Source: Antedon mediterranea (lineage: Eukaryota; Animalia; Echinodermata). From it: 64,000 nt of DNA. Below the pieces are notes generated by a model, which saw only the letters and a list, made by a program, of their open reading frames with translations, ran no database searches and had not been told where the DNA came from. The position numbers and the translations under genes were made by a program. Positions 5,401-53,366 of the stretch are shown here, in pieces. The stretch spans positions 16,278,948 to 16,342,947 of the forward strand of contig NC_092673.1 of assembly GCF_964355755.1 (NCBI RefSeq), read 5' to 3'. How positions within the stretch are numbered: position 1 is the stretch's first letter; each line of letters opens with the position of its first letter.

Positions 5401-8400
5401 CATGCACCTTGTATTTAAACATAGGGACTACGATCCCATCCGCTTTTAGGCCTAGCTAGGCCTAGAGCCATTCACGCATTTCATTCAAGCTAAAAACTAG
5501 CGTGGGACATCAAGTCAGTCATTCATACAAGGCAGACTAGACTGGACAAGTTTAATGCTGAAAACCTCCTAACTCCTAAAAAAATCAGTAAACAAACAAG
5601 GGGAGATGTGTCCCTTTTATTAGCAAGTTAAGGGTTATTTTCAACCGACTGGACCAAAGAATATATATCTTTGACTGGACTGGATAGACTAATCACAATC
5701 ATTTTTTCTTCATCATTACGAGGTCTGCTTTATTTTCGTAACACAAGAGCCTGGGGAAAATGTTTTTTACTACAAACAAAATAAAAACAATAGAAACAGA
5801 AATTTGGCTTTACTATATTTTTCTTAAATAAATGCTGAGGTATGTTTTATTTACGGCAAATTTTGTCATAATTGTAGGGCTGAGATCTAGGCCTATATAC
5901 AGTGGAAATAATGATGAAAACACGCGAGTAAGAGCACATGAATATGCAACTAGAAACAACCTGGATGACGTACTTCCGTTGTAACAATAATCGTACGCTA
6001 TGGGCCGGGCCTGAACACCTCGTTTTTTTCTCTGCGGTTTGTAACGTGACCTTGATAGTAACGTTGTACGCTAAAACGGTCTAACGCCATGGGTCTGAAC
6101 AGGGCCTAACTCTTCCCTGGTATTATCAACAAACTTAAAAATAAGAGATAGTTCTCTATCCATTGTAAATAGAACAGTTTATATTTCATCAAAGAACGTA
6201 TTGTTAATCAATCTTATTTTGATATGCTTGCTCTATAAATTCAACAACAGAAATGATTGGTCAAAGCTCTCTGTGAAGCTGTCAACATCTTGAAATTAGC
6301 ATGCAACATACAAATACATTGCAAAATAATAACAAATTGATATTAACAATCAAATTAGGGTGTGATACATTGTGTAGGTCTATGGTACAGGGCTCAGGTG
6401 GCAGGCCTTTTAGGGTGTGGTACATTGTATAGGTCCATGGTACAGGGCTCAGGTGGCAGGCCTTTACTTTACTTGCCAACTAATGTTTATTTTTTTCTTG
6501 TATCAATTTTCTAGTTTTTTTATTGTAATATGGTCCTCTAATGCTATTTTTTGTAATATATTTATAGACCATAAATCAATTTTTAAAAATGAGGTTCTGC
6601 ACAGTGAAGTTATGGTTTTGTGGTTGATTGTGTTGAGTAATGAATAATCAAATGCTTGTGATATTTAATTCTTAATACTGATACTCATTTCAGATCTGCA
6701 GTTGCCAGAAAATGACAGGTAAGTAGTACTGTATAATGAGTGTATCACAGTATCTATACTGTTTATTTATACTCTCCAATACCATAGAGATAGACCAACA
6801 CCCTGCTAGTTAATTGTATGCCCTGAGATGATAGTCTGGAAGGGATATTATTACTATCACTTGTGTGTCTATCAGTTCATTTGTATATATTAATAACATA
6901 ACCTATTAATACAACCAAAGTTCAACCATAAAAATAGTGTTGAAACAATTATACACAAAATCAAGAATTATAACAAACATCAAAAGAACTTTTAAACCCA
7001 AATAATAATAATGAAACAATCCTGGTTTTATATAGAATTACATTCTGCATAAGCTTAACGGAGGATGGCAGACTTTTTGTCCTACCAATATTTTCAATTT
7101 CAGTAAGATATATGCCACACTTCCGTTTTGGCCGACAGACTCCTATATTTATACTTGTCTCCTTATGCTCCTGGTTTTATATTCTCCCGTATTACAAAGA
7201 TAACTGAACTTAATGTGTTGCTTTCTGCAATAAAATATAAAAAAAAGAAGCTCAAAACACATACAAATTTATGATATTTAAGTCATAATTTATTGATCCC
7301 CTTATTGAAGGGGATTCTTTTCGCATAGCCATCATGGTACCAATTGCTCCTTGCATTTCCTAATTTTGATAATAATACTGTAAAAAAGGGAGTGGGGAGG
7401 GGTTGCTAGAACCATAAAACCCTCCTGCTTACGAGTCTGTTATCCTTATTTTAGGGAGTGGGGAGGGGTTGCTAGAACCATAAAACCCTCCTGCTTACGA
7501 GTCTGAATCCTTATTATAGGGAGTGGGGAGGGTTTGCTAGACCATAAAACCCTCCTTCTTATGAGTCTGTTATCCTTATTATAGGGAGTGGGGAGGGTTT
7601 GCTAGACCATAAACCCTCCTTCTTACGAGTCTGTTATCCTTATTATAGGGAGTGGGGAGGGTTTGCTAGACCATAAAACCCTCCTGCTTACGAGTCTGTT
7701 ATCCTTATTATAGGAAGTGGGGAGGGTTTGCTAGAACCATACTTACTTACGAGTCTGTTATCCTTATTATAGGGAGTGGGGAGGGTTTGCTAGAACCATA
7801 CTTACTTACGAGTCTGTTATCCTTATTATAGGGAGTGGGGAGGGTTTGCTAGAACCATACTTACTTACGAGTCTGTTATCCTTATTATAGGGAGTGGGGA
7901 GGGTTTGCTAAAACCATAAAACCCTCCTGCTTACGAGTCTGTTATCTTTATTATAGTTTTACTAATGTGTACATATACATTTTTATTTTTAGCCTGAAAG
8001 AAAGCATACAGACATTTGTCAAAGGTAATTTCCTTAGTCTTATGTTGGTGAGTTAAGGATCATAAATGAATTTACTTTTTATTTTATTTCACCACCACAC
8101 AAGTCAAGTCAGTGTAATATAACGATATACTTTTATAATTAAGAAATTGACCTTTGTATCGGAATTCAAATAAGTTCACAAACTTGACCCAGAAAGTCCA
8201 GAGGAGAGTTTGTCCAGATGTTTTAATGACCATTTAGTTTACAATCGAATCCCTAAAGAATAACTTTGTGACTGTTCCCATCATAAAACAATTAGATATT
8301 GACAGTTTTTAGCAGAGATTGGACAGGGCCAATTCATCATTGTAACCTCCCCAGATAAGATCAATCACTCCCACTTAAACACCTCTGGATCAACTTAGGA

Positions 8401-11400
8401 CCAATCGTTACCCTCACAGATTACGTAGTGACATATGCAAATGAACCGAAGCCAATATACCCCCAAGTTTCAGAAGAGCCCAGACACACCTTACAGCCAC
8501 CTCACGGAGCACACACCTTACAGCCACCTCACGGAGCACACACCTTACAGCCACTTCTTCAGAAGCAGACCTACACACTTCACACCTCACTGACAGCATC
8601 ACTGATCCTCCGTTCCTTATCTATACTTATAGTTGTATATTGTACTGAAGTATTATACTGAATAAACAATATGTGTTACGACAGTTAAGCGAGTAAGAGT
8701 CTTCATTAGTACCTCAACACAACATTATATTACATCAGTTACAACGTTGAACAATAGAAAATGATCAATAGACATTTATTTAAACATATATAACTCAATC
8801 AAAATATCTTATGTCTTAAGCTGCTATATTAGCTATTATCTGATATCAATCTCCGGACTGAATTCTGCGAAATCTGCTGGACACGACGGTATTGATGGTA
8901 AGCTCGTTCGGGCGGCAGCCCCCATCATCGCACCTTTCCTCACACAGATTATTAAATACTTCCATCTCCAGTCAAAGCTTCCCTCTCTCGTGGAAAATTG
9001 GTAAGATTACTCCCATCTTTAAATCCGGTAACAAACATCTACCGGATAACTACAGACCTATATCTGTGTTACCTATCATGTCTAAAGTGATTGAGAAGGC
9101 CGTCGGTATGCAAGTACTGGAATATCTTTCTTCAAATAATCTTCTCTGCCCTAACCAATCTGGATTTCGTCCCACTTATTCTACACTCACTGCTATTACC
9201 AAAACTCATGACAGCTGGATCCACAGTATAAATGAAGGTAAAATCATTGGTTCAGTTTTTATTGATCTAAGGAAAGCTTTCGATCTAGTAAACTACGAAA
9301 TTCTGTTACGTAAACTTCTCTTTTATGGTTTTTCCGAATTGGCTGTGAAATGGTTTACATCCTATCTTTCTGGACGTCAGCAACATGTTTGTTATAAATC
9401 AACTATATCTTCATCTATTAATGTCAACGCTGGTATACCTCAAGGATCCAACCTTGGGCCACTGTTATTCTCCATATACATAAATGATCTCCCCAATTGT
9501 TTATCGTACTCTTCAATGGATATGTTTGCTGATGATACCATAATTTACAATTCTAGCGATAAGGTAGACGATATTGTAACCAATCTTAATTTTGACTTAG
9601 ATAAAATCGCCAATTGGCTAATTCTAGCTAATAGTCTAGCGCTCAATACTAAAAAAACTGAAGTGATGGTAATTGGAACGCCACAAAGGCTTTCTTTACT
9701 CGGGCCTATAAATGTTTCTATTAGCAACTTACCTATCAAACAGGTCACCCAACATAAGCATCTTGGCATCATTCTTGACCACCATCTTACTTTTATTCCG
9801 CACGTTGATAAGTTGTGCAACAAATTAAGTTCCTCTATCTCCATCCTCGCCCGAACTCGAAAATTTGTCCACCAAGCTACATCTCTTATGTTATACAATG
9901 CTCTTGTCTTACCTCATATTGACTATTGTTGTTCTCTCTGGGGCTCACGAGCACCACTCGTTGCTAAAGTCCAGAAACTTCAAAATAGAGCTAAAAGAGT
10001 TATCTTGAAAGTTCACCCTCATACCCCATCCCACCTTGTTGATAACACCATTTCTATCTCATCCGTTTCTCAACGTTATCAGTTTCAACTTGGTTGTCTC
10101 GCCTATCGGGCTTCCACCAACACCGTTCCGGATTACATCAGTCGCATGTTAACCAGGGCTCAGCCTGGAGGTCGACCTACTACCAGATCCATCTCTAATT
10201 GTAATTATATTATTCCTCGACCTTCTTTAGAGATTTTTAAACAATGTTTCAGTTATAAAGCGCCTATGTATTTTAATATGATTCCTAAAATCATTCGACA
10301 ATCTGAAAATGTTATTTCCTTTAAACGTGAACTTAAACAATTTATTTCCAGTTAATATTGTTCGTACTATGTATATATATATATATTTTTTTTTTTATCT
10401 GTCAACAATTTTAACTTTTATATGAATTTTATATAATCATTGTAAATTTTTAAGCCTTTAATATATTTTATGTCATTTGAATCTATATATAAATTTACGT
10501 AAGGGCAAAATTCGGTAAATCGCGCCTTACTTTTAGAATTTTTACTCGATGGTATATAAAGTTGGTTCGTACTTTCGGTACTGATTTTAACCACCTGATT
10601 TAACCCTATTTACTAATTAAATTAAGTTAGATAATTAGTTATTGACGATTAAAACGAATTTAGGTTCAACGATTTGCCCCAAAGAGGGGTGTTTTCCGAT
10701 CGTGGTATACACTGTCTAATGGATGTCTATCTTGAAAAATACCCGCCACAAAAATGCGAGGAGGCTTCGCATTTTCCTATCTCCTCCTACGATAATTGTT
10801 TTTAATAGCTGAAAACCCGTTGAACAGCTAGAGTACAGCATCATAATGTTGAAGACAGGCCGATTTTCTTTAAAAAATACTATTTTGATAGATTTAATAT
10901 ACGATTCTACAAATGTATTGATTTGCGATGAATGGAACATCCCAATCTCTCAGTCTGCCGGAGTTTAACACAAGTAGGTAAATTTATGAGCCCTTGGTTT
11001 AACATATACGGTAGGTAAATATATGGGCCCTTTGAGAATAAACTTGCAATACTTCGACAATACTGTAAATACCTATTATTAACTATTGTTGGTCAACATT
11101 TGAATCAAACATTTCTAACTGTGAATGTTCGTACTGTTAAATGTAATATAAAAATATATACAAATAAACTTTATTACTGAGATTGTGGATAGGCTCTACT
11201 GTTAGATATATAAACACATTATTATATACAAATAAACTTTATACTATAGACAGTTCCTTCTCAACGTTTGTATTAATTAATAATTACCAAAAATATAAAC
11301 GTCGTAGTGGTGTATATCGTGTACTTTAATATTTCAATCGATTATGACAGTGACAGTTTTAACAAAGTATTAAATCGCAAATGTTTTACTGTATTTAGAT

Positions 11401-14400
11401 GTAGGCCTATATTATTTATAGGTCTATAAAACATGAAAGAAATATTTCGTTACTGAGTGGATAAAGAGTATATCTAAAAATTGTTCTTCTTTGTACCTAT
11501 CCGCTTTCCCATCCCTCAACCCTAATGTTACATACAAAACACAAATTGGGTTTCTTTAAATGAGTCCAAATCAAACATTTGGACTCATTTTGTGATAAGT
11601 TTCTCCTTCGGAAGTAATTCCCAGGGTGCTAATTTTAGTTGACTACACAAATCATCGTGTCTATTTATTCGTTTCTGTAAACGACAATGTATTATAGTCC
11701 TGCGGTACGTACATTTGAAATCGCCAGTTTTGTTACGCTGAAATTACTGTGTATTCGAGAACCATCTGTGAGTACGACCTAGATGGTACGCTCGCTTCGC
11801 TCGCGTACCATCTATATTTAATATTTTATGTGTTGTACTGTATGTATGTTTTATCGAGGGCCCTGAATGATCAGTTCTATTAGGAACTGGATAGGCTACC
11901 CTCAGTAAATATGGTAATAAATAAATAAATAAAGACAAATTCTACATTCTAGGCTGATATTTACATTTTTTATTTTTTTACAATTAATATTTACAAAAGT
12001 GTAGCGTACACACATAATGGGGAACTAACGACTGGGGACAGTGGGCACGTTTTCTGGGCGTGCTTTAGTAGGACCAGAAAAGCGCCCTTATTGTAAGCCT
12101 TTAAAGGTGCAATTCCAGGTCTATATTGACAAAATTGTTTGACATCAGCCTAAACCATGGTGGGGCTTGAGTGATCTTTATTGTGTTTTGACAAACAGGT
12201 ATAAAAACTAAATTGGTTACTGGTCATAAAACAGAATATAAATAAAAACATTCAAAAAGTTCAAAGCATATTGAAAACTTACGATAGATGTTTTTAATCG
12301 CATTTCCTACTGCCTAATTCTGAATCATACCAGTTATTCATTTCAGGATTACTTTATTTTCACTTTACCCATTGAAACCATGCTAATCAACTGTATGTTG
12401 CTAGAATTTCAACGATTTAGATTCAGGGTCGCTGTCAAAAAATGTCTATATGTTTGGATGAGTTTGAGTTCCACAATTTTTTTTAGGACATAATTTAAAT
12501 TAATAACTGTAGTTGTTAACTGTATACATTATTATTATTATAGTATATTCAGAATGAATGATTTCTTGTACACAGTCACCCACAAGTGTTTGTAAGGCTT
12601 TGTATCACACAGAGCCTTTATATAACCTTATATCATTGGAAAAAAAAAGCTATGACTTTAAATATAGTGTTTTTTATGAAAATATATAATATGTAATATT
12701 TTTGTTTTTTGCATTTTTTTAGATTTACCAAGAAATGTTGATGAGCAATTTCAAACACAATTTCAGAAACAGACAAGTGACAAACAGAAAACAAAACTTC
12801 TTAAGCCAGAGAGTGGTAAGTTTAAGAATAAGAGCTGCTGTATGTTTTATGATTGTATCTATATATAATTTAACAGAATTGTGATTAAAATGGGATTTCA
12901 GTAAAGAGAGAATTAGACGCTAATGTTATTTAAAAAAACATTTCTGAGCGGTACTGCAAAAAGGCGAAAAGTGTGCAACTGATAACAAATAACAAATGGA
13001 GAGATTTTATTTATTATAAATAAAACAGTTGATTGTTTCCATTTAAAATACTGTAATAATGGAATGAAGCTAGTTTGCAGATTTATGGGGCATGCTTGCT
13101 TGATTTTTGCTTGATTGTTGATTTTTAGGTTATATGCATTATCATGCGATCACACGATTTCGCACGATTTAACGAAATCACGTTTGTAATCATATCTTCA
13201 CAAGCATGAATCACTTTTAAACAAAATTTGGTACTCATAAATTTCAGGTCATTATTTCATCATATGACAATACAATTACGTGCGTAGCGCACATAACGCA
13301 TGTGTACACGCGCTTAAAATTTCCAAAATTGTCAAAATTTATTTTCGATGAAATTACAGTACGTTTCAGGCAATTTTAAGCATTTAAATAATTGCGATGA
13401 GTGCACAGATTTTTGCACGCGCACTGCGCGTTAAACGTTAATGCGCACTCTTTTTGTCCGATTTCTGTTGTACAACCTTTCTTTAATAATATCATCATAT
13501 TTTATTCACTTTTCAACTCGAATTTGCGTTATATGAGCACGTCAAAAGTGACAGGCTACGCACGTGTAAGTTAACAAAATGGTGAAAATATGCTAAATTT
13601 TAAAAATAATATAGATCGTCAGAATGCTCGGGAACACATATTTTTTATTTCATTTTCTTGAAATGTATGTATCATATGTATGATTGATTTATGAAATTAA
13701 GAGTACAAAAGTTGATAAAGTCATCATTAATTGCATTTTAAATTTTTAAAAATGTATTTCGACAATCAAAAAATTATGACATTTTCTTAGGCCGATAACA
13801 AACTTTAACTTTCTTTCTTCAAAATAAAAGTTCATATATTAAAGTTAAAAGTATATAGTTTGACAGTGCATCATTTTTTAACATTTTTAAAGATGTCATC
13901 ATAGTAAAAAATACACGGAGGAATCTTTCTACAACTTTTAGTCAGTTGTGTATGGCTCGGTGGTCTGTGCTCGTGTCTATGGTATTCAAGGTACCGAGAT
14001 CGAGTCTCACATTGGGAAACGAAATAATATTTTTTTTATTATCCATATTGTTTGTTCAATTTTATTTTTTAGTGTATAGATTATACACATAATTTATAAT
14101 GAAATCTAGATAAAAAGTAAGTAATGTCTTTATTATTATGTAACAATGTGGTTAATGACATTATACGCAGAGGGATCTTTGATCGGATTGTGATACCGGC
14201 TATTGTATTCACGTTAGCAAGATCCTATATCTATATATAAGTTTATGTAAGGGCAAAATTCGATAAATCGCGGTTTATTTCTAGAATTTATACTCGATGG
14301 TATATAAAGTTGGTTCGTACTTTCGGTACTCATTTTAACCATCTGATGTAACCCTGTTTACTAATTAAATTGAGTTAAATAATTAGTTATTGACAATTAA

Positions 14401-15883
14401 AACAAATTCAGGTTCAACGATTTGCCCCAAATAGGGGTGTTTCGTGGTTGTGGTATTCACTGTATAATGGATGTCAATCTTAATAAATACCCACACACAA
14501 TAATACGAGGATGCTTCTCATTTTCCTATCTCCTCCTCAATAATTGTTTTTAATAGCTGAAAACTGGTTGAACAGCTCGAGTACAGCATCATAATGTTGA
14601 AGATTTTCTTTAAAAAATACTATTTTGATATGATAGATTTAATATACGTTTATACAAATGTTTTGATCTGGGATAAATGGAACATTCCAATCTCTGTTCC
14701 ACAAGTTTCTATTCCCTCAGGCGTCGTAAAGACAAGTACAGTCATAACAGAAATTCGATCCATTTTTTTTTTCAATCTGTGCGGATTACCAATAAAAAAA
14801 AAAAAAAAAATCATATCTTTAACAACGTATTAACAGGAATACTATCAAGTTTCCAACTCTTAACCAACGGAGGAACTACTTTTATTGTATTTGTCTCTAT
14901 AAATGTATCAATGTGTCATTTGGGTTCTTTCTCCTTTCTTTATTTGAATATTCTTAAAAACGGATTTACCATTATGGGCCCTCAACAAGACAAAACAACA
15001 AACAACAACAAAGAATTATAAAAATTAAAATAAAGATATGAACAAGATGATAATGACAAAGAAGTTTGTGTTAATAAGAATGACATTACTCTAACATTAT
15101 AATTAGTATCATATTTTAACACAAGAATATAATGCTGATTATTAAGACAAACATAAAGTGGGTAGTTTTGTTGTACTGTAGTTGAATTTCTAAAGCTGAT
15201 TATAGATATAGAAAGTTATTATAATGTTTCACAAATCTATCTGAAAACAATGATTTCAACAATAAATATAGCATAGCATAGTTAAATGTAGACAGTGAAC
15301 AATTTTATTCCCTGGTGGTAGTGTTTTCTCTGCTTTGGCCCTCCTCAGCACTCCACATTTTGCTGAAACAAATAAAAATATAAATTTACATCATTGTGTG
15401 AACAGGTGCCATGTTAAAATATATTAAATATAAATTAGACAAATTTCACAAATTTCATATATATCTTGTTTTTAAAATAGACTTATATATATATTATATA
15501 AAAATCATAGATAAAATCTCATTGATAAGATGATAAGTGAGGGTACCAATGCCTATTATTGTAGATAAAGGTTATATATAATAATATGATTGTTATCATG
15601 ATGATGATCAAGATATGATAATGACACTCGGGCTATATTCAGACATAGCCTCACCAGTCTTTGTAACCTACACCAGTATAAAAATATAGAAATTATTATT
15701 ATATGGTAGCATTATGAACATTAACAATTTTTGCCAAGTTGTGTCTATTAATATTTCTTTTTATGAAAAATATGTGTTAAATATTTTGTATGTTACATTT
15801 TTTAGATTTACCAAGTCTTGTTAGTGAACAGTTTGAGAAACTAATGGTTGAAGAACAGAAAACAAAGCTTAAACCAGTGATTG
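2153..15883 (+). CDS. Short exons encoding a low-complexity E/Q/T/K/S-rich region
   Basis: DLPRNVDEQFQTQFQKQTSDKQKTKLLKPES (two copies), DVQDGSVTSALPQSDIQGSQQ, DEQDDTEITTQENEQ, ELTKQLTSNSLSTVNEELQTQMKKGMIEEQERKLEAES, EVTKQFASDSSDTLSDEFQTQVVEQETKPEPES, DLPSLVSEQFEKLMVEEQKTKLKPVI. All are phase 1-1; the 25 nt and 32 nt exons together sum to 57 nt. Confidence 0.72.
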
Positions 15884-18800
15884 GTGAGTTTAAGAATAGT
15901 ATAAGGAGTTGTATGGTTCAATGTAACATATTGTGATTAAAATGGTATTTCAGTAGTGGACTTGTAGTAAGAATTTCATTCATTTTGTTTATCATATATT
16001 ATATAATATACAAATTCTTATAATTGCGTGCAACTTCAATAGCTTAAATTGTCCTTGGCTGTACTGCTATGATTATAAGTTTCTCAATCATGGTTCAAAA
16101 TTTGGCACAAAACATTTTCAATGAGTTGAAAGATTAAGAGAATAATTTAATTGGTCAGATGTTTTGTCTTATTCTGACGTAATTGCACTGTATACTCAGT
16201 TCAATGAGAACACTTTGCGAACAAATTTAAAAGTATTTCACAGATTGGACTCAAACCCATGACCTCCAGATTACTAGCATTGCGTATATACCTCCAGACC
16301 ACCGAGCTCAGTAGTCTAAAGAGGTTTGAGTCCCATCCACACACTCATTATAGTGTAAATATCTTTTTAAATGGTTACATATTATTTTAGTTACTGTTCA
16401 TGTATTAATTACAACAGATGGCATGGTAATGATACCACAACCAAAGTTGGCTGCAATAATATTAAAAAAATGAAAAACTATTTTTGTTATAAAATTAAAT
16501 AGAACTAACACTGTGCAAGTCAAGTTGAAATTAATGAATTGAGGAAAATAGATAATCTTACATTGCTGTATATAAATTGTTCTGCTAGTTAACTTAATGA
16601 CATGTTCAAATATAAGCTGTATTATCTACTTACTGTACAGTGTTAATATAATCTTGACAATAAACATGATTTGGTACTATTTTTGTTAAGAAGTTATACT
16701 CTAAAGAGAGCTAACATTGTAAGTTTGTGACGGAAGAAAGTATAATTGTATAATGAAGGAGATTGTAACAATTACTATATAACAAACACAATTAAAATAA
16801 TATTTCATTCTGCAGATCAAATGGAGTTAATTGTGGGATCCACAGGTGGAACTCTTCACCTTAAGGATGAAGACATAAAGTTGCAGATACAACCTGGAGC
16901 AATTGAAGGGGAGAAAGTTAAAGTATCTCTAGAACATTGTTTTGAGGAAACAGGCATGCCTGTACTTTATCCTCATGGATCAATAATATCACCTATTGTT
17001 AAATGTGGACCAGAAGGCACCAGCTTTAACAAGCCCATTTCATTGTCATTTCCACACGATGCTGTAAATGAAGAGAATTGGGAATTCACTCTACTTGTTA
17101 AAGATCGCATTCAAGATGAATGGAAACGTGATGAAAAGGACATACAGTTTACTTTAAAAAACGGTCGATGTTATATAACATTAATTCATTTCAGTTTTTA
17201 TGCACTAATTGGTCATGTAAGAAATTTCTTTGGTAAGAAAAGAATGTTGTTAGGAGTTTTTGGAAAGATGCTTGCAAATGATGAATATCAACTTCAAACA
17301 AGACTTTTTAAGCCGTCAGATAAACAGGTAATTACTATTTGTTGTTAAACTGTATTTAAATAAGGTAGTTCTTAATTTACTTACATTAACAAATATTTTC
17401 AAAATATAGATATAATAAATAGTTGTTTTGTCATATTTGGTCAATAACATTAACCTAGGGTAGTTAATTTGGCATAATATTTATTCTCTTATTTTTATAT
17501 ACCTTAAAATTATACAGTGTACAATCATGTATTGAATTGATTCCTGATCATTATAAAATATGCTGTAAAGAAGTAAACATGATGATTGCATTGTACACTT
17601 CCCTCATATAATTAATAAACTAATATACACAGTCACAAATAACATTAAGTATATGTATTTCAGACGATAAAAGAAGAGCACAGTGAAATTGGTGAGAAGC
17701 CTTTAATAACACCAGTAGATATACTATCTATGTATAAGGACATGAACATTACTGTAGCAGTATCACAACAGGAATGGAAAGTTCATGAGAAAAAAAAAGT
17801 AGGAATATCAATATTTTTAGTAGATTGGCATGGTAAAGAATTATGCATTAAACATGTTTTTGCAGGAATACCACATAACTTGAGAATTCATAATGATAAT
17901 TGATCAATAAATAAAATCTCTATTGCTATCCATATATTTAGCATACTGGATCACGATACTGAGTTAAGATCTTTAACTCTGTCTACACTGTCAAACTAGT
18001 TTGACAAAAAAAGTGTGATATATACAAATATGGTAGTGATATGCCCAAAAATGGTAGTGATATGACATCATCTTGTCCATATATAGGCACATTTTGTTTG
18101 ATAGTGTAGACAGAGCTTTAGAATAAAAATGCTGTCTTTTGATTAGTCTCGTTGGAGGATGCACACTTTTAATTGCAGTTAGCCATTTTTATATTTCTCA
18201 TTGAGAGAAAAACTCTTTGAATGAAAGCATTATCATAACATATAACACATAACATTATAAACAAAATTATTTAAAAAAAAATGTATTCACCAAAGCAAAT
18301 CAATTTAACTACAGTGCCTTTGAGCTGTAACTTTTTATCTCCTGGCTCCTTTTTTCCCTTAGACTGTCACTGCTGAATACCTATGGCGTGGAACACCATT
18401 GAAGAATTTTCTTTTAAAAAGAGGTAATTCATCAGCAAAAGTCCTAAAGGCAACAGTATCACTGTCACAAGAGTCAAATGATATTGATCCAGTGGAAGTG
18501 AATTGTAAGTATTTAAAATGCAACAACAATTAAAGTCTAAATTTAGAATGATTGTAATAAATAAAATGTACTATTCAAATACGGTAATCAGACATTACCA
18601 TCCATGACAATAACCACCCATTATTAACTGTACCATTGTTAGAATATGGGGTGGAATCAATATAGGTGTTGGCTTGTTTTTTATCTAGCACTACAATACA
18701 CTTTGGTTACATTGCTAGTTCCTAAAACACCTTAATTCTTCCGCATATCAAGCAGAGGATTTTTATTTCGAATATCGGTTGGGTGTTTTTTTTTCTAATT

Positions 18801-21800
18801 CTTACAGATTTTCTCATCTTAATTTGTTTATATTATTTAATTTCCAGTATAATATTACTAGTCAAGTGTTTCTATATATATATAAATCTGGTTTCTTTTT
18901 TTATTGAAAAAATGATTAAATATTTTATTTGTTATAGGTGATGTTGTGACATCAAGACTAAATCCAGGTATGTTATATTAATTGTGGTAATGATTAAGTC
19001 TGTTTTCATCTTGACCAGAGAAAAGGCATGAGCCAATACGTCTGAGGCAGATACTAGATGCAAGGGCTGCCAGCAGTTCTGATTTTGAATGCTTGATGGG
19101 ACCCCAACTCCCAGACGGTCTCCTATCCAAGCTCCAACCGGGTCCAAAGTTGCTTAACTTTGGTGATCAGACAGAAAACATGAAAACATGATATCATGTA
19201 GTGCATGAACACAAAACAAAAAACTGACTTCAATTTTTAGAATTTAATTTACCACCATTTCTATGGAAAATTGTACAATAAAGGGCAGCCTTCAGTACCA
19301 TTTTGTCTGGCACTATTAGACTGGTTCAGGGACGATTCGGCCCTGAGACGATTCGGCCCGGGACTATTCGGCCCACTTTTGGTGGGACGATTCGGCCCAC
19401 TTTTGGGCCGAAACATCCCACTTTGTGGGCCGAAACGTCTCAATTTAGACCAAATTCATATTCATTTTTTTGGGTATTTATCAAGTTTTTAAAGGTGTTT
19501 AACAATCCGTATTTTATTGATATTGACAATGTTGATATAATATATATAATAAATTACTAAAAAAAACGTAATTTTATATTCAATTTATTACTTCGAAAAC
19601 CTTGTTTATTTTGTGCATTCGCCAAGCGGCCAACAGAGGGCGTAACTTGTTTACATCGTTCGCGTGACTAAAAATTTATCATTTTCGACAATGTTTTCAA
19701 AATGTTCGCTTTATTGCATCTTTATCCCTAGTAGTACTACCCCATAGTCTCTCTGAAAATAAAGTTTGGGGAAAAAGCTTATTTTATGCTTATAAAATGC
19801 ATATCAAAGCCAATAAATTTAAGTGTGCCGAATCGTCTCAGGGCCGAAACGTCCCGGGCCGAATAGTCCCGGGCCGAATCGTCCCAGGGCCGAATCGTCC
19901 CAGGGCCGAATCGTCCCGGGCCGAATCGTCTCAGGGCCGAATCGTCCCGTTACCCTATTAGACGGATTTACTTGACCTTGGTTATAATCCTGCCCAATGT
20001 GAATAGTTATATGGTAAGTGCCAGCAACGTTGCAGGCATCTATACCGGCATTTTGCCAGCACTATGTGTGTCTTTTGGTGCAGGTGTATCAAACCAAGGC
20101 ATTAGGCAAGGTAATAACACTCTTTAGTTACAGTACTACTTACATTTATAAAAACATATGTAATAAATTTATGCTTATTTTTTATGCTTATTGTATGTGT
20201 TTTTAAGCATCAAGGAAAACCAATTTCATGTTCGCCTTGTTGTGTTCATGACAATAAAGATTATCTTTATTGTCTATTCTGAAATATCTTATCTTTATTC
20301 TGAAATATGTTCAAGATGAATAACATTTTATATTATTACATTTAAATTTATCTAATTTTACAATCAACATTAATTATGCATTTTACATTTTACGTAAGGC
20401 CAACATTTGAGTAGCAAAATCCAATTTATCTTGATCTCATTTGTCATCATATTTATTAATTGATTGATTGATTTTATTCGATATTCATACATAAAAGTTA
20501 AAATATACAATGTATAAAAAGAATACCTGGATAACCCATTAAGTCGACAAAAAAGTAAACTTATTTCCAATGGGGTCCAATCCGTAATAACTGAAAAGTG
20601 AGTGGTTGGACCTAGCACAATATATCATTAAGTATGACGCAGTAAAAATGAAAAAACAAGAAAATACATATAAGACAAGATAATATTAAAAAAAATAATA
20701 TTAAAAAATAACTGATATTCCAAGCTGTTCATTATTAAAATATTCTTTATGTTTTATTTTGAATGTTGCATTATTTTGTATTGATTTGAGTGAATTGGGG
20801 AGCCTGTTCCAGTCATGGATACCTAAGAAATAAAAATTTGTATCGTTAACGCCAGTAGCCTTAGGAGTGACAAAATTAAATGTTGTACCCCTGGTGAAAT
20901 GGTTATAATGATCAGAAATTAACAAAAAGTTATCCTTAAGGAAAGATGGCGTATTAAAGTTATAGCGAATTTTGTGAAAATAATTTAATCTTAAAAACTT
21001 ATTTCTGAGGCTGACATTAAGAAACCCAAGATCGGAAAGCTCTTTGGCACCTATGTGAGACCTGATCGGACCAACATTTAAAATGAAACGTGCCATCCTT
21101 TTTTGGGCAGTTTGTAATTTATGTTTAAGATTCTTATTGACACCGCCGTACCATGCCGAGGCAGAATAGTCAAATGTACATTGTATTAAAGCAGTGCTTA
21201 ATAGTTTACGACATTTTTTATTCAAGCACGAACTTTGCCTATGTAAAAACTTCAACCTTGACTTAACTTTACTGATAACACTAGTTGCAATAATATCACA
21301 TGATACATATTGGTCTAAATCAATACCCAAATATTTAACTTGCTTAGTACTTTTGATTGTACGGCCCATTAATTCCACAGAAAACTCTTTAACTTTGTTA
21401 AGCTTCGCTCTGCTACCAAAGAAAATACTTTCGGTTTTGCCCACATGTAATGATAATTTGTTTTCAGTTAACCAGTCCTGGCACTTAGCTAGGACAGTAC
21501 TTAATTTATGAGCGATTTTGGTGGCATCGTGATGGGAATACAGAATCGTAGAATCATCAGCATATAGAAATAATTGAACATCAGAATCAATACAAGAAGC
21601 AATATCATTTAAATAACATAGAAAAAGAATAGGGCCCAAGATGCTACCTTGCGGGAGTAACTATAAGAGGTTCAGAGCAGGTACCATTCACACTGACAAC
21701 TTGTGTACGGTTAGCGAGATAAGATTGAAACCAGTCAGTACACTTAAAACCCATGCATTTTAGCTTGTTAATTAAAATCACATGATCGACGATATCGAAA

Positions 21801-24800
21801 GCTTTTTGTAAGTCAATTAGAACCATTCCAGTAAGAAGGCCTTTGGACTTATTGTTTTTTAAACCGTCGATGAGATTTATGAGGTTGCTTTCAGTTGAAT
21901 GGGCCTGCCGAAAACCGGATTGATAGGCATAAAGTATATTATTTTTGGAAAGATACCTTTCAACTTGTATAGCTACATATTTTTCAAGAATCTTAGATAC
22001 CGTAGGCAGAATACTAATCGGCCGATAATTCTCAACACTTGTTTCTAGTATTTTTCTTAAATAGTGGGGTAACTTTAGCAGTTTTTAGATCATGAGGAAA
22101 ACAATTAGTTTTAAACAAAAGGTTAATGATATGAGCTATCGGTTCAGCCAAGATTATCGCACCGTCACGTAAAAATCTTGAGGGAATATTATCTAGACCG
22201 CTTTTACATTTAGGCTTTCGAGTTGAGTTTTAACAAATTCTATGGTAACAGGCTCTAGCTTAAACATTTTTCCTTTTAATTTAACATATGAAGATCGTTA
22301 GTGGACATGGTGGAAAAACCTATGCATTTTGGGAGTTTTTTGACGAGTGTTGACGCAACATTCGTGAAAAATTCATAAAACGAGAGGCAACGCCTTTTGG
22401 ACAGAAAGTTTTTTTACCATTGTCTGGCATCGAGAACGATTTTAGTGTTTGTTTTACATTTCTTCTCGTATCCGAGCTGTTTGAGGGTTTTCCATAATTT
22501 TTTAGGGTTGTCTTTATTTTCATCAATCTTATTGAGAAAATAATTAGATTTAGTTTTTTTGATCAGCCTAGAGGCACAATATGATTTGTATATATCTAGA
22601 TTAGATTTATCTTTCTTGAATTTTTTTAAAAGTGTGTCTCTTACTTTGATTTCATTGGCAATTTCGGAGGTAAACCAGGGTGCTATGTTTTGTTTAAGTC
22701 TAACTTTTTTTATTGGCGCTATTGAGTCGATCACCTTAATGATGATATCTTTAAGAGTTAACCACGCGATATTTACATCGTCTTATTAGTGACAACAGAC
22801 CAATCGATATCGTTAAGTGTTTCAAGATAGTTATTTACATTATAGTTTTTTAAAGATCGTAATTTAGCGGAGTTGTGTTCATTTTTGTGAACATGAGACT
22901 TAGGTATTTTTCTAGTGCAATAAATACGAAAATGGTCACTAAGGCCAATGTTAATTACTCCAGATTGCTTCACATTATTTTGTACATTAGTAACAATGTG
23001 GTCCAAACATGAACTTTTTTCTTTTTCCTATTCTAGTTATATCCTTATTAATAACATTACTAAAACCGTTTCTTATAAGACAATCATTATATCTTTGCGA
23101 TACTGGATTAATATTTAGATTACATATGTTAAAGTCACCAAGAACTTGAATTTCACTACTCTCTTTGATTTTTGATACAGTTTCTTCAAAGTTGTTCAGA
23201 AATAAAGATACATTCTGTTTTGGTGGGCGGTAGCATGTACCAATCACAATTTCCTTTGAACGAGGCAGATATATATTTATCCAAATTGCTTCAAAACCGT
23301 TGATATCCAGTTCATTTCTACGTGTGAAGGCGCGTTCATTTTTAACGTAGATAGAAACTCCACCACCAGACCGGTTTCTGTGCTTCCTGAGCGCTGTATA
23401 TCCATCAATTTTGATCTCGTTATCGGTGATGGATTCGTCCAGCCACGACTCGCTGATGGATATAACAGTAGCTTTGGTCTTTGATGCGATGTGCCTTAGT
23501 TCAGACATTTTATTAACTAATGACCGCGCATTAAGGTGAATAAAATGTAGGCCTTTGTTAAACACGTTGAATTCCTCGCTTAAATGCTCGTAAATGTATG
23601 TCCATCTTGTCGGGTTTCTGTCACATTATTTGCGTCGGCAATAAGTTCGTCATGAATATTAATGTCACTGATGCATTCATCATTCGGAAGCTGATTGAAG
23701 AGGCATTCTTGACATAACCAATTTTCTTTCGAGTTCCGTTGCTTATCATATACAATTTTAGTTATTCTTCCGCACTTGATATGGTAGATACATTTGCATT
23801 CAGTGCATTTTGCCCTGTGCGTTTTCGCAATCGGTTTTTTACAAGTTGAACATGGGTTTCTGATTGGTCCTGGGTTTGGAGAAACGTCTCCAGCGATAAT
23901 AATAAGTACCATCAGGAAACTTGGGTTTTTTAAGATTAAGCGGCAAACTGGATACGGTTTAGAAGATCCGTACATTGTCCAAAAGGGAGACATTATATTC
24001 AGGTTATCCGTATGAAAGTTTCTATGTAATAGTCAGCAGTTATCATATAGCATACTTAAAATAACATTTTGTAGTTTTTTAATTGTAGTAATAATAATTG
24101 TAAGGTATGATTTCACAACATTCCAAAAACTTAACTTTTCTACAGATGGGGAAGATGAAGATGAATCGCTCATCAAGCAACCAGGTATGTTCTATCTGTA
24201 CCCCTTTTTTAGTGAAGAACATAAACATGTGTATAGATACCTGTTTTTTTTTTTTTTCAGACTAAATATCTTTAATAATATCTGTTTTCTTAAAGATCTT
24301 TTTAGAAATTGTTACTTCTTTCATTCTACTTGTAATAATATGAAGCTACTGACATTTTTGTGCATGTTTTTAAAACCTGAATATTAATGATTGTATGTCT
24401 TTGCATTATAGACATCTCAGATGAGGATTTCTGGCAACTGTTGATTGATACAGCAGAGTGGTATGATCGACTTGGATATCTCAAGAAATTGAAACTTTTA
24501 TACAAAGACCATCTGAAGAAATCTAGAGTGGAGGTGGAGAGAGCTAATAGTGTTTGGGATCTGCTACAGGATTTAAGAGCCTTAGGAAGTTTGAGTCCAT
24601 CAAACCTTACTATTCTATATGACACAATAACAGTAACCAAGCAATTTGGCTTCAAGTCAAACGTTGAGAATCAACCACCAGAAGATATTAAGAAACATGT
24701 AGTATCAATGTTGACACCTTTCAGACAGAAGGTTTATCAACTTGGAGTAGAACTTACGAAGGATGAAGTATCAACACTTGCCAGGTTATTTAACAATGTA

Positions 24801-27580
24801 TTGGTAAAGACATATCAAGATAGCTGGAGTATGATTATGGACTTTGAACATAGAGGGATCATTGATGAGGATTTCACAAAGATGGTTGAGTTTCTTAGAG
24901 TTTTAGAACAAAATGGAATGACAAAAGCTAGGAAGATTTTCATTGATGGTTGGTTGATTTATTTGTTTGTATTTGTTGTTTAAATCATGGTTCATTGTTA
25001 AAACATATTCAGTACATACTGTAGTACACTTCAATCAAGTAAGAGTATTGTAACAAATTAAACATTTTAGGGAGATTCAAATTATTATGATGTCCCTGTC
25101 TGTCTGCTATTATAGCTGATTAAGGATATCAACCAACATTCGGTTAAATGGCAATTCAGCTGAATTAAATGACAAGTTAGTAAAATAACAATAATATGCT
25201 CAATGAGTCCAATGGAAAATGAACTGAACTGAAACGTATGTGTGTATTCCATGCTTTTATCCCTATCAATCAGATTGACCCAAACCTTTGGAACATAATA
25301 ATAATCTGCATTTTAAATTTGTGAATGCCTCTCAATTCCTACAAAGCCCAGCATACCATTTGAGGGTCAAAAGACCGACTCTGGGGCTGATTCAGATCTT
25401 TACTATTGCAAGAGGATCATTAAGTTGTATAAGAAAGCCACAGGTTGACAGCGTACCCATCACCACCTCCATGCCAATTAATGCACCCGGACACTTCATA
25501 AACTTGAGTTTAGATTATGTGACTTCTGCCTATCCCATTAATAACTTACTGAAACTAGAGAATGCAAAACTCCACCTACAATATAATTTTCCTACACATT
25601 AAAATCTCTCCCTGAGAAAAGTGGTTTGTTTTTTCAGTAAGGTAATTTGGCCTAATTGCACTGCATAACAAATTAATGTGAATTTTCCATGGTTGAAATC
25701 CTGCCTCAAATTGGGCTGAAGAAGGGAGTCTTTTTTAATCATTTCTTTTTTTTTAAATAATTTTTTTGTAAATTTTGACATTTGACCCTGCCTGTTCAAA
25801 ATTGAATTACATTATGATGGATAATTTTGGCCAAATTTCAGTTTAAAAGTGTGGCCTGGCAGGATATATAAAGAAAACATTTATAGTAGGTTGTGACCTT
25901 GACCTTTCATGGAAGCATCCACCTACGCAGAATGAAAAAAAAAAAACAAGAAGTCAACAAGTAGTCTACATAATTAGATTTATTCTAAATAAGTCTTAAG
26001 TATATATGTCTTCTGGTATAGGTATGTCTTCTGGTGCAGGCGCATCTTCTGGTGCAGGCGCATCTTCTGGTGCAGGCGCGTCTTCTGGTGCAGGTGTGTC
26101 TTCTGGTGCAGGTGTGTCTTCTGGTGCAGGTGTGTCTTCAGGTGCAGGTCTTTCGTCTGACACAGGTGAATGTCAAGGTAACTATCAAGGCACTAGAGCA
26201 ACACTGTACAGCAAAAAAATATATTATTGTTGATATTTAGCCAGGAGTTTTTGTATACAATATTAAAATAGACTAGAAATCTTTAATACCTTTCTATACT
26301 AAGTGATTGTAGTTGTTTATGTAGGGTGTAATCTAAATTGATTAAAATCTATATTTATCAGGCAACCTTAAAATAACTTGGAAGTTTTTCTTTGACTTTC
26401 TCCAAATCTATTCTGTTCATTTCCTTTTCAGGTAGACATTATACATTAATCCTGTTTGTTGCTTATTGTTCACACAATATCAGCTTAGATAATTAAACTT
26501 TCCAAAATGTTATCACAAATGTTCGTTTAAAGTTTATATGAATGTTTCTATGTAATAGTCAGCAGTTATCGTATAGCATATACTTAAAGACGTATTGTCC
26601 CCCAAAAACATGAAAAATGAAGATTAATTAAATCAGACTTTGAATAGGTTGTTATGTAGTTTTAAAAAAGTAAATCACTTCCGAAGAAAAAAAACGGAAA
26701 AAAATAATGTTTTCACTTATAAAATAACATGATAAATGGTTAAATTCAACCAAAAATCCATTGGCTGGCAGCCAATTTTACCATTTTTTGCTTTAACTTC
26801 CAGTTTTTTCAGGTAAATAATTTTTTTTTTCGATCCAATTTTTGCTCAAAGTCAATAACTATTAGTGACATTAAAATGGCATATTCAACAACAAAAATTT
26901 AAAAAAAATATTTTTCAGGGGGACAAATCAACAAACATCCAACCTATTTATTTTTTATTTAATCAAATTTATTTAATTTTAACATACTATTAAATGTTTT
27001 AGGTTTAACTGTGTTCATACTTTGTTAAGGGTTAGGGTGTTTAATTGTTTAATTATTTCTCACCATATCTATTACTTAATGAGCTTGCTTTGTTGTTATT
27101 TCAGGTATGCATCATGGCGGGTAAGTATTTTCCACATATGTACTGTTATTTGATCAAATTAAAATATAAGTTTGTTAATAAATTGGCAATTTCTGTGTGT
27201 GATTTACAGAATACATTAAACTTTTATTTTCATTTCATTTATTTTGCCATATAAAATGTATAAAAAAACAATTAAAAGAAAACAAAACCAATAAAAAAGA
27301 AAAAGATTACTCTCTGCCTCCCCACAAAGGCAGACAGGATTACCAAAAGCATAAGTAAACACTGTCTAGTGGCTCTCGTCAAGGTCAATACAGGGCTGGT
27401 GATAATCAACTAAAGCCTGTTTTCTAGTCTACGTTATTCAATTTCAACACGATTGTTTGAAAACAATCAAGTTGAAAGAAACAACAATTTTAATGTTAAT
27501 ACTTTATTAGAATTTTAATTATTTAATTGTACCTTGTTATTTCTAGTCAAAAAGAAAAGAGACGTTGCAAGTTGTTATAA
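2153..27580 (+). CDS. Spliced gene, 5'-incomplete: acidic repeat region - ZU5(HFS) - UPA-like - tandem DED-like - GS linker - polybasic CaaX
   Basis: AG/GT-bounded, phase-compatible exons: 2153-2245, 3602-3664, 3958-4002, 4184-4297, 4514-4612, 6694-6718, 7993-8024, 12723-12815, 15806-15883, 16816-17327, 17664-17798, 18363-18504, (20060 or 20084)-20110 uncertain, 24146-24184, 24412-24948, 26022-26177, 27105-27120, 27547-27581 (TAA at 27578-27580). The frame stays open across all joins. Confidence 0.8.
2713..2800 (-). mobile_element. 5S rRNA-derived SINE head (SINE3-like) or 5S pseudogene
   Basis: Minus strand acggcc...cttgtctgatcaccaaagttaagca...cttggatggtagaccatctggga aligns with the 5S A-box and C-box region. 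Confidence 0.75.
3286..3550 (+). mobile_element. DINE-1/pearl/Tsp-like (Helentron-associated) non-autonomous repeat fragment
   Basis: (TG)n microsatellite followed by a repeated core ccacagtttttatccrattctcaccaaa and ggtcaaggtca motifs. Confidence 0.5.
4982..6119. mobile_element. Tiny palindromic element (about 52 bp) with 7-bp TSD, split by a MITE
   Basis: gtattat-CAGGGAAGAGTTAAATTACAAT...ATTGTAATTTAA[insert]CTCTTCCCTG-gtattat. Confidence 0.7.
5024..6106. mobile_element. PIF/Harbinger-type MITE
   Basis: TIR of about 45 bp starting GGCCCTGTTCAGACCCATGGCGTTAGACCG; TAA TSD on both sides. Confidence 0.88.
7388..7956. repeat. Minisatellite, 59-66 bp unit, about 9 copies
   Basis: gggagtggggagggtttgctagaaccat...acgagtctgttatccttattata repeated. 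Confidence 0.95.
8113..8734 (+). mobile_element. Solo LTR (4-bp TSD, Gypsy-like)
   Basis: TGTAATATAA...TTATATTACA ends; TSD tcag; AATAAA at 8661. The empty site is visible in the paralogous intron at about 4351-4370. Confidence 0.85.
8830..10400 (+). mobile_element. 5'-truncated CR1/L2-group LINE (RT domain, ORF 8892-10355)
   Basis: NYRPISVL, QSGFRP, FIDLRKAFD, GIPQGSNLGP, FADD, HKHLG motifs. Upstream KSAGHDGI...IIAPFLTQII is in another frame (frameshift near 8955). No endonuclease domain. Confidence 0.93.
10482..11815 (+). mobile_element. Non-autonomous Helitron-like element (other copies: 1-1245, 5'-clipped by the window; 14230-~14700, diverged)
   Basis: 5' end a^TCTATATATAA is shared with 14230. 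A GC-rich hairpin tagatggtacgc-N11-gcgtaccatcta lies near the presumed 3' end. The terminus reads CTAT rather than CTRR, so the 3' boundary is uncertain. Confidence 0.55.
10571..13000 (+). repeat. Copy 2 of the segmental duplication, carrying a duplicate exon at 12723-12815
   Basis: Identity to 1-2430 ends after aacaaatgga. Confidence 0.95.
13952..14010 (+). other. tRNA-like A/B-box segment inside an unclassified repeat (about 13125-14229)
   Basis: tggctcggtgg ... gagatcgagtctc; no full cloverleaf. Confidence 0.35.
14230..14700 (+). mobile_element. Diverged third copy of the Helitron-like 5' region
   Basis: Colinear with 10482-~10950 with many substitutions. Confidence 0.65.
16244..16308 (-). 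mobile_element. tRNA-derived SINE head
   Basis: Minus strand agctcggtggtc...ggaggtcatgggtttgagtcc (A and B boxes). Confidence 0.5.
16816..17327 (+). CDS. ZU5 domain exon (UNC5/ankyrin/PIDD type) and start of UPA
   Basis: VGSTGGTL...KLQIQPGAI...ISPIVKCGPEGTSFNKPISLSFPHDA...W...YITLIHFSFYALIG matches the ZU5 pattern; bounded by tgcag and gtaatt. Confidence 0.9.
17664..18504 (+). CDS. Two exons of a UPA-like beta domain (17664-17798, 18363-18504)
   Basis: In frame after ZU5: TIKEEHSEIGEKPLITPVDIL...ITVAVSQQEWKV and TVTAEYLWRG...KVLKATVSLSQ. UPA is inferred from position and beta-strand pattern. Confidence 0.65.
17975..18117. mobile_element. Short MITE (a half-copy lies at about 48315-48350)
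   Basis: ctctgtctacactrtcaaa ... tttgatagtgtagacagag inverted termini in tta context. Confidence 0.7.
19105..19180 (-). mobile_element. Second 5S-derived SINE head, within an intron block paralogous to 2490-2960
   Basis: Same 5S-like boxes; flanks 18880-19320 align with 2500-2935. Confidence 0.72.
19322..19954. mobile_element. Mutator/foldback-like MITE with subterminal repeats
   Basis: Arrays of gggacgattcggccc and gggccgaatcgtccc at the two ends; 9-bp TSD ctattagac; empty paralogous site at about 2927-2940. Confidence 0.85.
20460..24005 (-). mobile_element. Degenerate CR1-group (Crack/L2-like) LINE: 2A-like - PHD - APE - RT
   Basis: Frameshifted ORFs: GDVSPNPGP plus a Cys/His finger (23580-23993); HLNARSL, SESWL, GDFN (22987-23565); DHI, SDH; IDLQKAFD; YADD (20701-21639). 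3' AATAAA(ATCA)n tail at about 20460. Confidence 0.93.
24412..24948 (+). CDS. Tandem death effector domain (DED)-like exon
   Basis: Two helical units of about 80 aa: FWQLLID...LKKLKLLY...ERANSVWDLLQDL...LSPSNLTIL and LTPFRQKVYQLGVELTKDEV...SMIMDFEHRGII. These follow the caspase-8/cFLIP DED1-DED2 pattern; the RxDL motif is not conserved. Confidence 0.72.
26022..26177 (+). CDS. Exon made of 18-bp repeats encoding a (SSGAGA/V)n linker
   Basis: About 8 copies of TCTTCTGGTGCAGGY...; phase 1-1; donor caag/gtaact. Confidence 0.7.
26588..26929. mobile_element. TTAA-flanked (Kolobok-like) MITE; related inverted copy at 43715-43945
   Basis: ttaa-AGACGTATTGTCCCCC...GGGGGACAA; right end degraded. Confidence 0.55.
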
Positions 27581-27581
27581 G
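27105..27581 (+). CDS. Terminal micro-exons (16 nt and 35 nt) encoding GMHHGGQKEKRRCKLL*
   Basis: tttcag/GTATGCATCATGGCGG/gtaagt joined to ttctag/TCAAAAAGAAAAGAGACGTTGCAAGTTGTTATAAG/gtatag. Confidence 0.72.
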
Positions 27582-27584
27582 GTA

Positions 27585-27830
27585 TAGTATTTAACTTAAA
27601 ATTTAAATTTGTTTCTAAAGTCATGCATTGTTTTAGTATTTAACTTTAAATTTGAATTTGTTTCTAAAGTCATGCATTGTTTTAGTATTTAACTTTAAAT
27701 TTGAATTTGTTTCTAAAGTCATGCATTGTTTTAGTATTTAACTTTAAATTTGAATTTGTTTCTAAAGTCATGCATTGTTTTAGTATTTAACTTTAAATTT
27801 GAATTTGTTTCTAAATTCATTGCATTGTTT
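27585..27830. repeat. Minisatellite, 49 bp, about 5 copies
   Basis: tagtatttaactttaaatttgaatttgtttctaaagtcatgcattgttt. Confidence 0.95.
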
Positions 27831-28677
27831 TTCTATTCAAAGACTAATGTAGTTTCAAAATGTAAGAAATCATTTGTCTTTTTTCCTACAAAACCTATAA
27901 AATGCTTTTTGTTGTAGTCATTTGCAGTATTTTAAAACAACTTTAAATGAAAGCACTCAAGAATATTTCTAAAAAGATGAGGATTTATGAAACATTTTTC
28001 TCTTTTAGATTACTGGTTGGTAGTTACTGTATATATGATGGATTAACTGCTGTTGGTGGCTGCAGTATCTGGTGTGTACATAGTGACCAGGTCTCTTACT
28101 CAGTCAAAAAATGCAACAGATGAAAAACAGTACACTCTTCACCAATCTAACAGTAGATTTCATACATTTTAAAGGCATTGTATGGATAATATTGAAGATA
28201 GATGTGAAATTATAAAGATATGAAAGCATATGGAAGTTTTGACACAATGACAAATGAATAAAGATCTAGAGAGTTATTGCCATCAGAGTCAAAGTTACAA
28301 TCCGCTACCACCACCCCTCTTTTTATAAAAAACCAAATAAACAAAAAAATTATTTTCCCCTCAAGAAATTCAGCCATGCTTGTCAGATGAAACGACAACA
28401 TTGATTTAAGAATTTTTGTAAAATACAGCTTTCTTAAAAAAGAACTTTACAAATTTCAGTTTATTACCATTCCAAATTCTATTATTGATTTTATAAAAAG
28501 AATAAAAAAATAAAATTAGACTTTTTAGTTTGCCTCAAGGAAATTGTGTAATTGACCAAAAAAGGACCAAAGAAAAAAGAAATCATTAAATGAAATAAAG
28601 TAGGTAATGCAATGCCTGTATTATGTATTTAAATAATAACTCATGTTTGATATTTAGTTTTATTAAGCTTAACATCC

Positions 28678-31090: not shown

Positions 31091-31220
31091 CAAAAAATGA
31101 CCAAATTGATAATGATGTTATTATATTAGTGATGTGCAATTGTCAGTCTGTGTTAACTGTCACCCTTTTTAATTCATATTTTGCAATATCAATGTTGTCA
31201 TCCTTCATGCTGCTTTTTGG

Positions 31221-41075: not shown

Positions 41076-41145
41076 TTAGGCTATTTTATGCTCAAATTAA
41101 ATGAAGTGTAGTCCTGGACTATTTTCCCTTCAAAATAGGCAACAT

Positions 41146-53192: not shown

Positions 53193-53366
53193 GTAAGTAA
53201 AATAGCTTAATAGTTTTTATTCATACTGAGATATTATGGATAGTATATCATTCAATTGTTTTATTGTTTTAGCTTCAATTGCTACATTTACAGATTGTGA
53301 TAAATTATTTTTATTCATTTTAAATTTGTATTGTTTTTAGAACATTGAAGAAAACTCAGGATTGGT

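Follow-up and report, generated by a model that had tools for sequence, protein, structure and literature searches.

Organization of the locus

The 64-kb window analysed here, from the crinoid Antedon mediterranea, contains the ZU5 exon and the downstream exons of a gene whose 5′ end falls outside it; no start exon was found within the window. Exons were predicted from AG/GT sites, phase, open reading frame and homology to paralogs. On the forward strand, splicing of the nine predicted AG/GT exons between 16816 and 27580 gives 532 uninterrupted codons, in the order ZU5, UPA, two short linkers, tandem DED (tDED), Gly/Ser/Ala repeat, 16-nt micro-exon and KEKRRCKLL-stop. The first exon (16816..17327, AG/GT-flanked and open in frame) carries the ZU5 domain (Pfam ZU5, E 2.9e-18), the cleavage loop and the start of UPA. 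It is followed by UPA exon 2 (17664..17798, open in frame and matched to paralogs by tblastn, e.g. P0002 with E 5e-13) and UPA exon 3 (18363..18504, 87% identical to residues 97-142 of P0002). The UPA exons are 50-87% identical to paralog regions, and a profile of crinoid paralogs aligns to the ZU5-UPA of UNC5B with E 8e-18; Pfam UPA gave a below-cut-off match only, in paralog P0006. A predicted UPA after ZU5 is supported by these sequence comparisons.

Two short, predicted phase 1-1 linker exons come next, both open and AG/GT-flanked, at 18938..18967 (resembling the post-UPA linker of P0012) and at 24146..24184 (acidic). The tDED occupies a single phase 1-1 exon (24412..24948) with Pfam DED matches in two stretches (E 1.1e-10). 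The structure model of this exon (pLDDT 89) has the fold of the caspase-8 tDED (TM 0.79). In sequence it shares 70-75% identity with tDEDs found in NACHT and Roc-COR proteins of crinoids, suggesting exon shuffling. Beyond it lie a Gly/Ser/Ala repeat linker exon with an 18-nt unit (26022..26177; P0012 has a similar linker), a predicted micro-exon with AG/GTAAGT ends (27105..27120) that sets the frame of the CaaX exon, and the last exon (27547..27581), which ends in a polybasic stretch and CaaX box. Its TAA (27578-27580) sits 1 nt ahead of a GT donor. By tblastn, neither a second ZU5 nor a second tDED exon was found in the 64-kb window.

It is very improbable that the transcript ends or splices otherwise, so that UPA, tDED and CaaX would not form one chain. 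Phase 1-1 module exons can be skipped, and a transcript that retained an intron would meet a stop directly behind the 16-nt exon. However, the splice sites are canonical and the frames fit, the tDED lies in frame after UPA in the predicted gene, as in the ZU5-UPA-tDED RefSeq models P0001, P0004, P0005 and P0006, and the tail homology described below crosses the last junction. The original prediction of a UPA-tDED-CaaX fragment downstream of the cleavage site agrees with the predicted exon model, where it would measure 407 residues (~45 kDa). The dependence of the CaaX box on a predicted 16-nt micro-exon counts against the reading proposed below.

Upstream of ZU5, two phase 1-1 linker exons were recognized on the forward strand, one at 12723..12815 (AG/GT-flanked, 87% identical to residues 13-42 of P0005, with a second copy at 2153-2245) and one just before ZU5 at 15806..15883 (89% identity with P0005 residues 43-70, which lead directly into ZU5 in that protein). 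A candidate exon of 8 nt (16418-16425) was discarded because it disrupts the phase and because in P0005 the exons on either side are joined without it. Further short AG/GT candidate linker exons, polar and mostly of phase 1-1, lie at 2555-2584, 3602-3664, 3958-4002, 4184-4297, 4514-4612 and 6694-6718, and the region around the post-UPA linker exon (18874-19324) recurs with 87% identity at 2490-2937. These candidates and this repeat suggest a modular gene that continues to the left of the window. In addition, two 2.4-kb segments (1-2430 and 10571-13000), each with a copy of the linker exon, are 99.6% identical; either part of the gene was duplicated in tandem very recently, or the assembly is in error here. 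The higher summed depth over the ZU5 exon in four intron-covering contig runs does not amount to a copy number, and these runs, in which the rows listed contain no splice joints, carry no information on expression.

The window as a whole is AT-rich, of animal type, and carries LINEs and satellites. LINE remnants with reverse transcriptase and endonuclease matches lie at 8862-10355 (forward strand), 20701-24032 and 55890-58854 (both reverse strand); the one in the intron (20.7-24.0 kb) contains, in addition, an ORF1-like frame with a PHD finger. Minisatellite arrays with units of 49, 62, 69, 82, 18, 85, 31 and 71 nt occupy 27585-33001, 41142-41547, 44248-46013 and 58979-62648, and the 69-nt array yields spurious ORFs with false Pfam matches. 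A possible unannotated gene or mobile element spans 52050-53624, with forward frames at 52050-52454 and 52617-53165 that lack Pfam matches and a short reverse frame at 53367-53624 that is helix-turn-helix-like by eye.

The C-terminal tail

A terminal C-a-a-L preceded by a basic patch is the rule for prenylation by GGTase-I, and the KEKRRCKLL-stop end of the predicted model (27547-27580) has both elements. We take CKLL with its basic patch and terminal Leu to be a Rac-like signal. The stop is so close to the last junction that nonsense-mediated decay would not be expected. If the protein is expressed, the balance leans slightly towards prenylation of the CKLL end.

Behind the stop, on the forward strand, lies an AG-flanked, hydrophobic exon of matching phase with an in-frame stop (28009..28171), which appears to be a decayed membrane tail. 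When the tail was read through with X at stops, the best of 160 protein tails was that of P0016 (score 67.5, next 39; 0 of 2000 shuffles), a two-helix membrane tail, and exon 28009-28171 alone also matches P0016 (0 of 1000 shuffles). The same read-through tail matches P0009 and P0006 more weakly (26 and 20 of 2000 shuffles); P0007 gave no match (887 of 2000). In the alignment with the WKLLQ of P0016, the Cys of the window faces Trp and the stop faces Gln. The decayed exon is ~22 codons shorter than P0016, and a second frame in it resembles the tail end of paralogs (3 and 38 of 1000 shuffles), a resemblance that suggests a frameshift; the exon probably carries one. A weak search found no match to its second half among 15 candidates. 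The exon is now likely 3′ UTR.

A pattern search found no CaaX ending among the 160 fetched proteins. Together with the decayed, homologous membrane exon behind the stop, this indicates that the CaaX box is probably a derived state. Hydrophobic tails end three of ten close crinoid ZU5 paralogs, hence C-terminal anchoring recurs in the family. P0012, a cluster member of the closest ZU5 paralog, ends in a basic patch and SLSM, which is CaaX-like without Cys.

Two origins can be considered: either prenylation replaced a transmembrane anchor, or a truncating change exposed a CaaX box by chance. That the takeover of the lost anchor was selected is somewhat less likely than not. The corresponding alternative, in which the protein still cleaves itself and the CaaX box is an accident of a nonsense change after loss of the transmembrane tail, in a young, decaying or soluble paralog without a selected lipid anchor, is unlikely but deserves attention. 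Since the stop faces the Gln of WKLLQ, KLL would have been inherited and one base change could have sufficed; moreover, the following exon is broken, none of the 160 relatives has a CaaX box, and several paralog models (P0002, P0012) look truncated or rearranged. The LINE in the intron 18968-24145, the nearly exact duplication of 2.4 kb and the breakage of the tail exon are equally compatible with a locus in decay. Nevertheless, the upstream frame is open over all 532 codons, and truncation by chance would seldom leave a Cys at the site of the paralog Trp along with a basic patch and a terminal Leu.

The HF|S motif and the upstream histidine

The codons CAT TTC AGT encode H-F-S in frame at 17187..17195 of the forward strand, at the end of the ZU5 domain, in the context YITLIHFSFYAL, which matches the earlier reading of the letters. 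The predicted scissile bond falls between the codon ending at 17192 and the codon starting at 17193. Letters, frame, Pfam ZU5 and a conserved alignment column all confirm the intact HFS at the ZU5 end on which the original prediction was built. The tripeptide occurs 25 times across the six frames of the window, and its chance at one pre-specified column, from residue frequencies, is ~9e-5. The cleavage motif of UNC5CL is also HFS.

The SFPH sequence (17046..17057, forward strand) is present upstream of HFS as had been stated. However, its histidine does not lend the additional support for cleavage that had been attributed to it, since it is commoner in motif-deviant (24/25) and ZO-1-type (14/14) domains than in intact ones (87/105). 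The same PH His is found in the non-cleaving UNC5B, ZO-1 and ankyrins and corresponds to UNC5B H624 and CARD8 H252; the sections of D'Osualdo et al. that deal with it judge it structural, although CARD8 H252 is required for processing (PMC3210808). On this distribution, and on that account, a catalytic role for the SFPH His was rejected, and it is best regarded as a structural ZU5 residue.

The catalytic His of FIIND domains is instead H270 (the CARD8 residue) or H942, as given in the parts of PMC3210808 and PMC8081665 on this residue; H1186 is a further such position in the NLRP1/CARD8 FIINDs. The H270 position lies 18 residues past the PH His. No counterpart was found in residues 88-103 of the exon, the 166-domain alignment has no conserved His column there, and Pfam FIIND is absent from the families of the 61 aligned members. 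A FIIND-type site would combine SF|S with an upstream catalytic His, and the motif here reads HFS. As no H270 counterpart exists, the site is of the HFS rather than the FIIND type. In Nup98, H862A/Q reduces cleavage only slightly according to the portion of PMC3210808 concerned, so an H-to-A control would be a weak test of cleavage.

Structural context of the site

The ZU5 exon was modelled from a 61-row alignment with a pLDDT of 93. In the model, strands 116-123 and 126-133 flank the turn that holds the F|S bond. Foldseek matched the model to UNC5B (TM 0.74, E 1.4e-8), ankyrins, GAIN domains and the rat NLRP1 FIIND (TM 0.60), and VIA gave Z scores of 14.1 for UNC5B and 9.8 for the rNLRP1 FIIND. 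An atlas search returned ZU5/FIIND clusters only. NLRP1 and CARD8 were found by fold only, as three queries gave no sequence match to them in the PDB. Nup98 was missing from the matches of both fold searches, which excludes nothing.

The VIA alignments of six GAIN chains (6v55, 8hc0, 4dlq, 8vti, 7qu8 and 5kvm) end at model residue 124, which is the motif Phe; the ends of these chains are presumably the GPS cleavage sites. The alignment with ZO-1 (2kxr) likewise ends at residue 124. In the UNC5B alignment, the motif Phe faces a Leu located 53 residues past the PH His. UNC5B L677 was equated with CARD8 F296 in the alignment discussed by D'Osualdo et al. (PMC3210808), and the spacing of the Leu matches that of L677 and H624, so the motif Phe aligns with the CARD8 F296 position. 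The earlier comparison with known HFS sites therefore stands: by turn position in the model and by GAIN-chain register, HF|S is a PIDD/Nup98-type site in the right structural place.

Conservation of HF[S/T/C] among homologous ZU5 domains

In a first homolog search, all seven matches were A. mediterranea proteins, with 59-75% identity; further close matches came from A. mediterranea and Anneissia japonica. Paralogs carry a tDED or Roc-COR-tDED in their N-terminal halves. A search over 1.84 billion representatives gave 325 matches at E <= 0.001, and the best 150 of the 325, with the earlier matches, provided 166 ZU5 domains in 151 proteins; the window sequence and two cluster duplicates (P0012, P0013) were left out of this alignment. 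All three motif positions are covered in 130 domains, 14 end in HF and 22 are uncovered there. HF[S/T/C] was found in 105 of the 130 and 25 deviate, counts that are inflated as the homologs were chosen by similarity to an HFS-bearing query. By column, H is present in 107, F in 120 and S/T/C in 119 of the 130. The third residue of the 105 HF[S/T/C] domains is T in 69, S in 23 and C in 13. Three crinoid domains deviate at the motif His (SFT once, YFS twice). The 14 ZO-1-type domains stop exactly at HF, at the C-terminal end of the protein, a 'pre-cut' state without the next strand.

The HFS motif is, at the sequence level, the family default, and its intactness is no surprise. Motif conservation, for which a check in paralogs was originally proposed, is borne out in that the column is kept in most homologs; for the same reason, being intact is not in itself distinctive. 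The residue that follows HF was S, T or C in 105 of 105 HF-x domains against a background of 17%. A quick tree was built from the 105 intact domains and the window after masking of the nucleophile column; on it, the nucleophile state changed at least 26 times, a soft count because 39 of the 103 inner branches of these 106 rows are weak. An 11-row crinoid clade (support 100/100) contains four S, five C and two T. Exchange among S, T and C only is what selection for an acyl-shift reaction should produce, and the restriction argues for selected self-cleavage, as far as sequence can tell. Packing at the strand start could also retain these residues.

The motif might be kept without cleavage, or with slow cleavage, in an uncut ZU5-UPA-death-fold supramodule like those of UNC5 and ankyrins, regulated by opening and closing. 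The best sequence and fold matches are indeed the non-cleaving UNC5B and ankyrins, the FIIND-type catalytic His is absent, and an intact motif does not guarantee cutting in the related GAIN domains, one structure of which (8oek) is titled uncleaved. On the other hand, UNC5B reads QLG rather than HFS at the motif place, PIDD and Nup98 cut at HFS in the examples treated in PMC3210808, and the strict S/T/C interchange after HF is what selection on the nucleophile predicts. We consider an uncut supramodule improbable.

Proposed mechanism

We propose, with a probability of roughly 0.6, that this crinoid ZU5-UPA-tDED protein likely cuts itself at HF|S and would serve as a death-fold adaptor of PIDD/CARD8-like type, tethered to the membrane. 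After folding, the Phe would be buried and the peptide strained; the Ser hydroxyl would attack in an N-to-O acyl shift aided by the His two residues before it, and water would then hydrolyse the ester, as in the known ZU5, Nup98 and GAIN chemistry. By analogy with these systems, constitutive cleavage after folding is probable. PIDD1 cleavage can be constitutive and is described as necessary but not sufficient in the relevant part of PMC7883297, which suggests that cleavage here would likewise be a priming step rather than the trigger.

The strand starting at the new N-terminal Ser would stay in the ZU5 sandwich, so that the halves would remain associated until the N-terminal one is removed or degraded. 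NLRP1 fragments stay together through the first post-cleavage strand, as described for the structure in PMC8081665. The freed UPA-tDED would then cluster and recruit partners with DEDs, for instance FADD or proteins like caspase-8. Inhibition by the N-terminal half, the other element of the original prediction, may occur; the gene's 5′ end falls outside the window. For the sequence of retention, release upon loss of the N-terminal half and partner recruitment, which is argued by analogy, the odds appear even. The CKLL end with its basic patch would be geranylgeranylated, assuming the anchor role of the lost transmembrane tail.

A bolder version, which we regard as unlikely, is a receptor-free death-complex nucleator anchored by geranylgeranyl, in which an NLRP1/PIDD-like ZU5-UPA switch that cleaves itself is fused to a caspase-8-like tDED. 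Here a stop codon would have exchanged a two-helix transmembrane tail for CaaX, and destruction of the N-terminal half by pathogens or stress would give DED filaments on the inner membrane surface.

The HFS motif alone adds little, since it is the ancestral ZU5 state and autoproteolysis was predicted before for the expanded DED/TRADD-N sets of invertebrates that are joined to UPA-ZU5 and FIIND, at least in the passages of PMC8195603 on these proteins. The alignment legend in PMC3210808 already lists DED-containing FIIND proteins. What is new is a ZU5-UPA adaptor of the self-cleaving type with an undescribed tDED effector and, possibly, a swapped anchor. The papers searched, mostly other than subscription ones, describe neither a ZU5-UPA-tDED-CaaX protein nor the present crinoid family. 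If the model is true, the cleave-and-release switch of PIDD1, NLRP1 and CARD8 would operate in echinoderm DED/caspase-8-type signalling too, in a family of crinoid proteins whose ZU5-UPA, tDED, NACHT and Roc-COR modules are reshuffled in the form of phase-1 exons. The natural S, T and C variants of close paralogs form a ready series for ZU5 cleavage chemistry. The tail, if the anchor swap is true, would show in compact form how a point change can let prenylation take the place of a transmembrane anchor.

Comparison with known systems

The A. mediterranea ZU5/tDED paralogs XP_071948765, XP_071948739, XP_071948789, XP_071949184 and XP_071965522 are 59-75% identical in the ZU5 exon and read HFS, HFC or HFT. 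These five uncharacterised RefSeq models have soluble or transmembrane tails, none with CaaX, and their modules are shuffled with Roc-COR and NACHT. The tDED module is also found in A. mediterranea NACHT proteins, Roc-COR proteins and one Roc-COR-tDED-ZU5(HFC)-UPA-tDED protein (among P0004, P0008, P0009, P0010 and P0011). From such sequences we infer that the crinoid tDED/ZU5 modules may have spread by exon shuffling in an immune gene expansion.

The tDED shares its fold with the tandem DEDs of caspase-8 and cFLIP, at 17-21% identity and here without a caspase domain. Among solved structures, the cytoplasmic ZU5-UPA-DD of UNC5B is the best match by both sequence and fold, but it is non-cleaving and belongs to a protein with an ectodomain and a death domain (DD). 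A UNC5 receptor, with an Ig/TSP1 ectodomain, a transmembrane helix before ZU5 and a C-terminal DD, does not fit the locus, where the pre-ZU5 exons encode polar linkers and a tDED stands at the C-terminus. UNC5CL, an autoproteolytic and membrane-associated ZU5-UPA-death-fold protein in the description available in PMC10084454, has its own transmembrane helix N-terminal to ZU5 and a DD, whereas here the anchor would be C-terminal, on the effector fragment. The FIINDs of NLRP1 and CARD8 resemble the crinoid protein in their ZU5-UPA fold and F|S bond but differ in their SFS, upstream catalytic His and CARD effector.

In PIDD1, HF|S stands behind ZU5 and ahead of UPA and a death fold, and its cleavage gives the UPA-death-fold fragment PIDD-CC in the accounts of PMC3210808 and PMC7883297. 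The crinoid protein has the same succession of HF|S, UPA and death-fold effector, and the cut would give a PIDD-CC-like piece. As far as the window shows, it does not fit a PIDD1 ortholog: PIDD1 has the order LRR-ZU5-ZU5-UPA-death domain, whereas the window holds one ZU5, a tDED in place of the death domain, a predicted CaaX box and no LRR. The likeness between the two is one of architecture.
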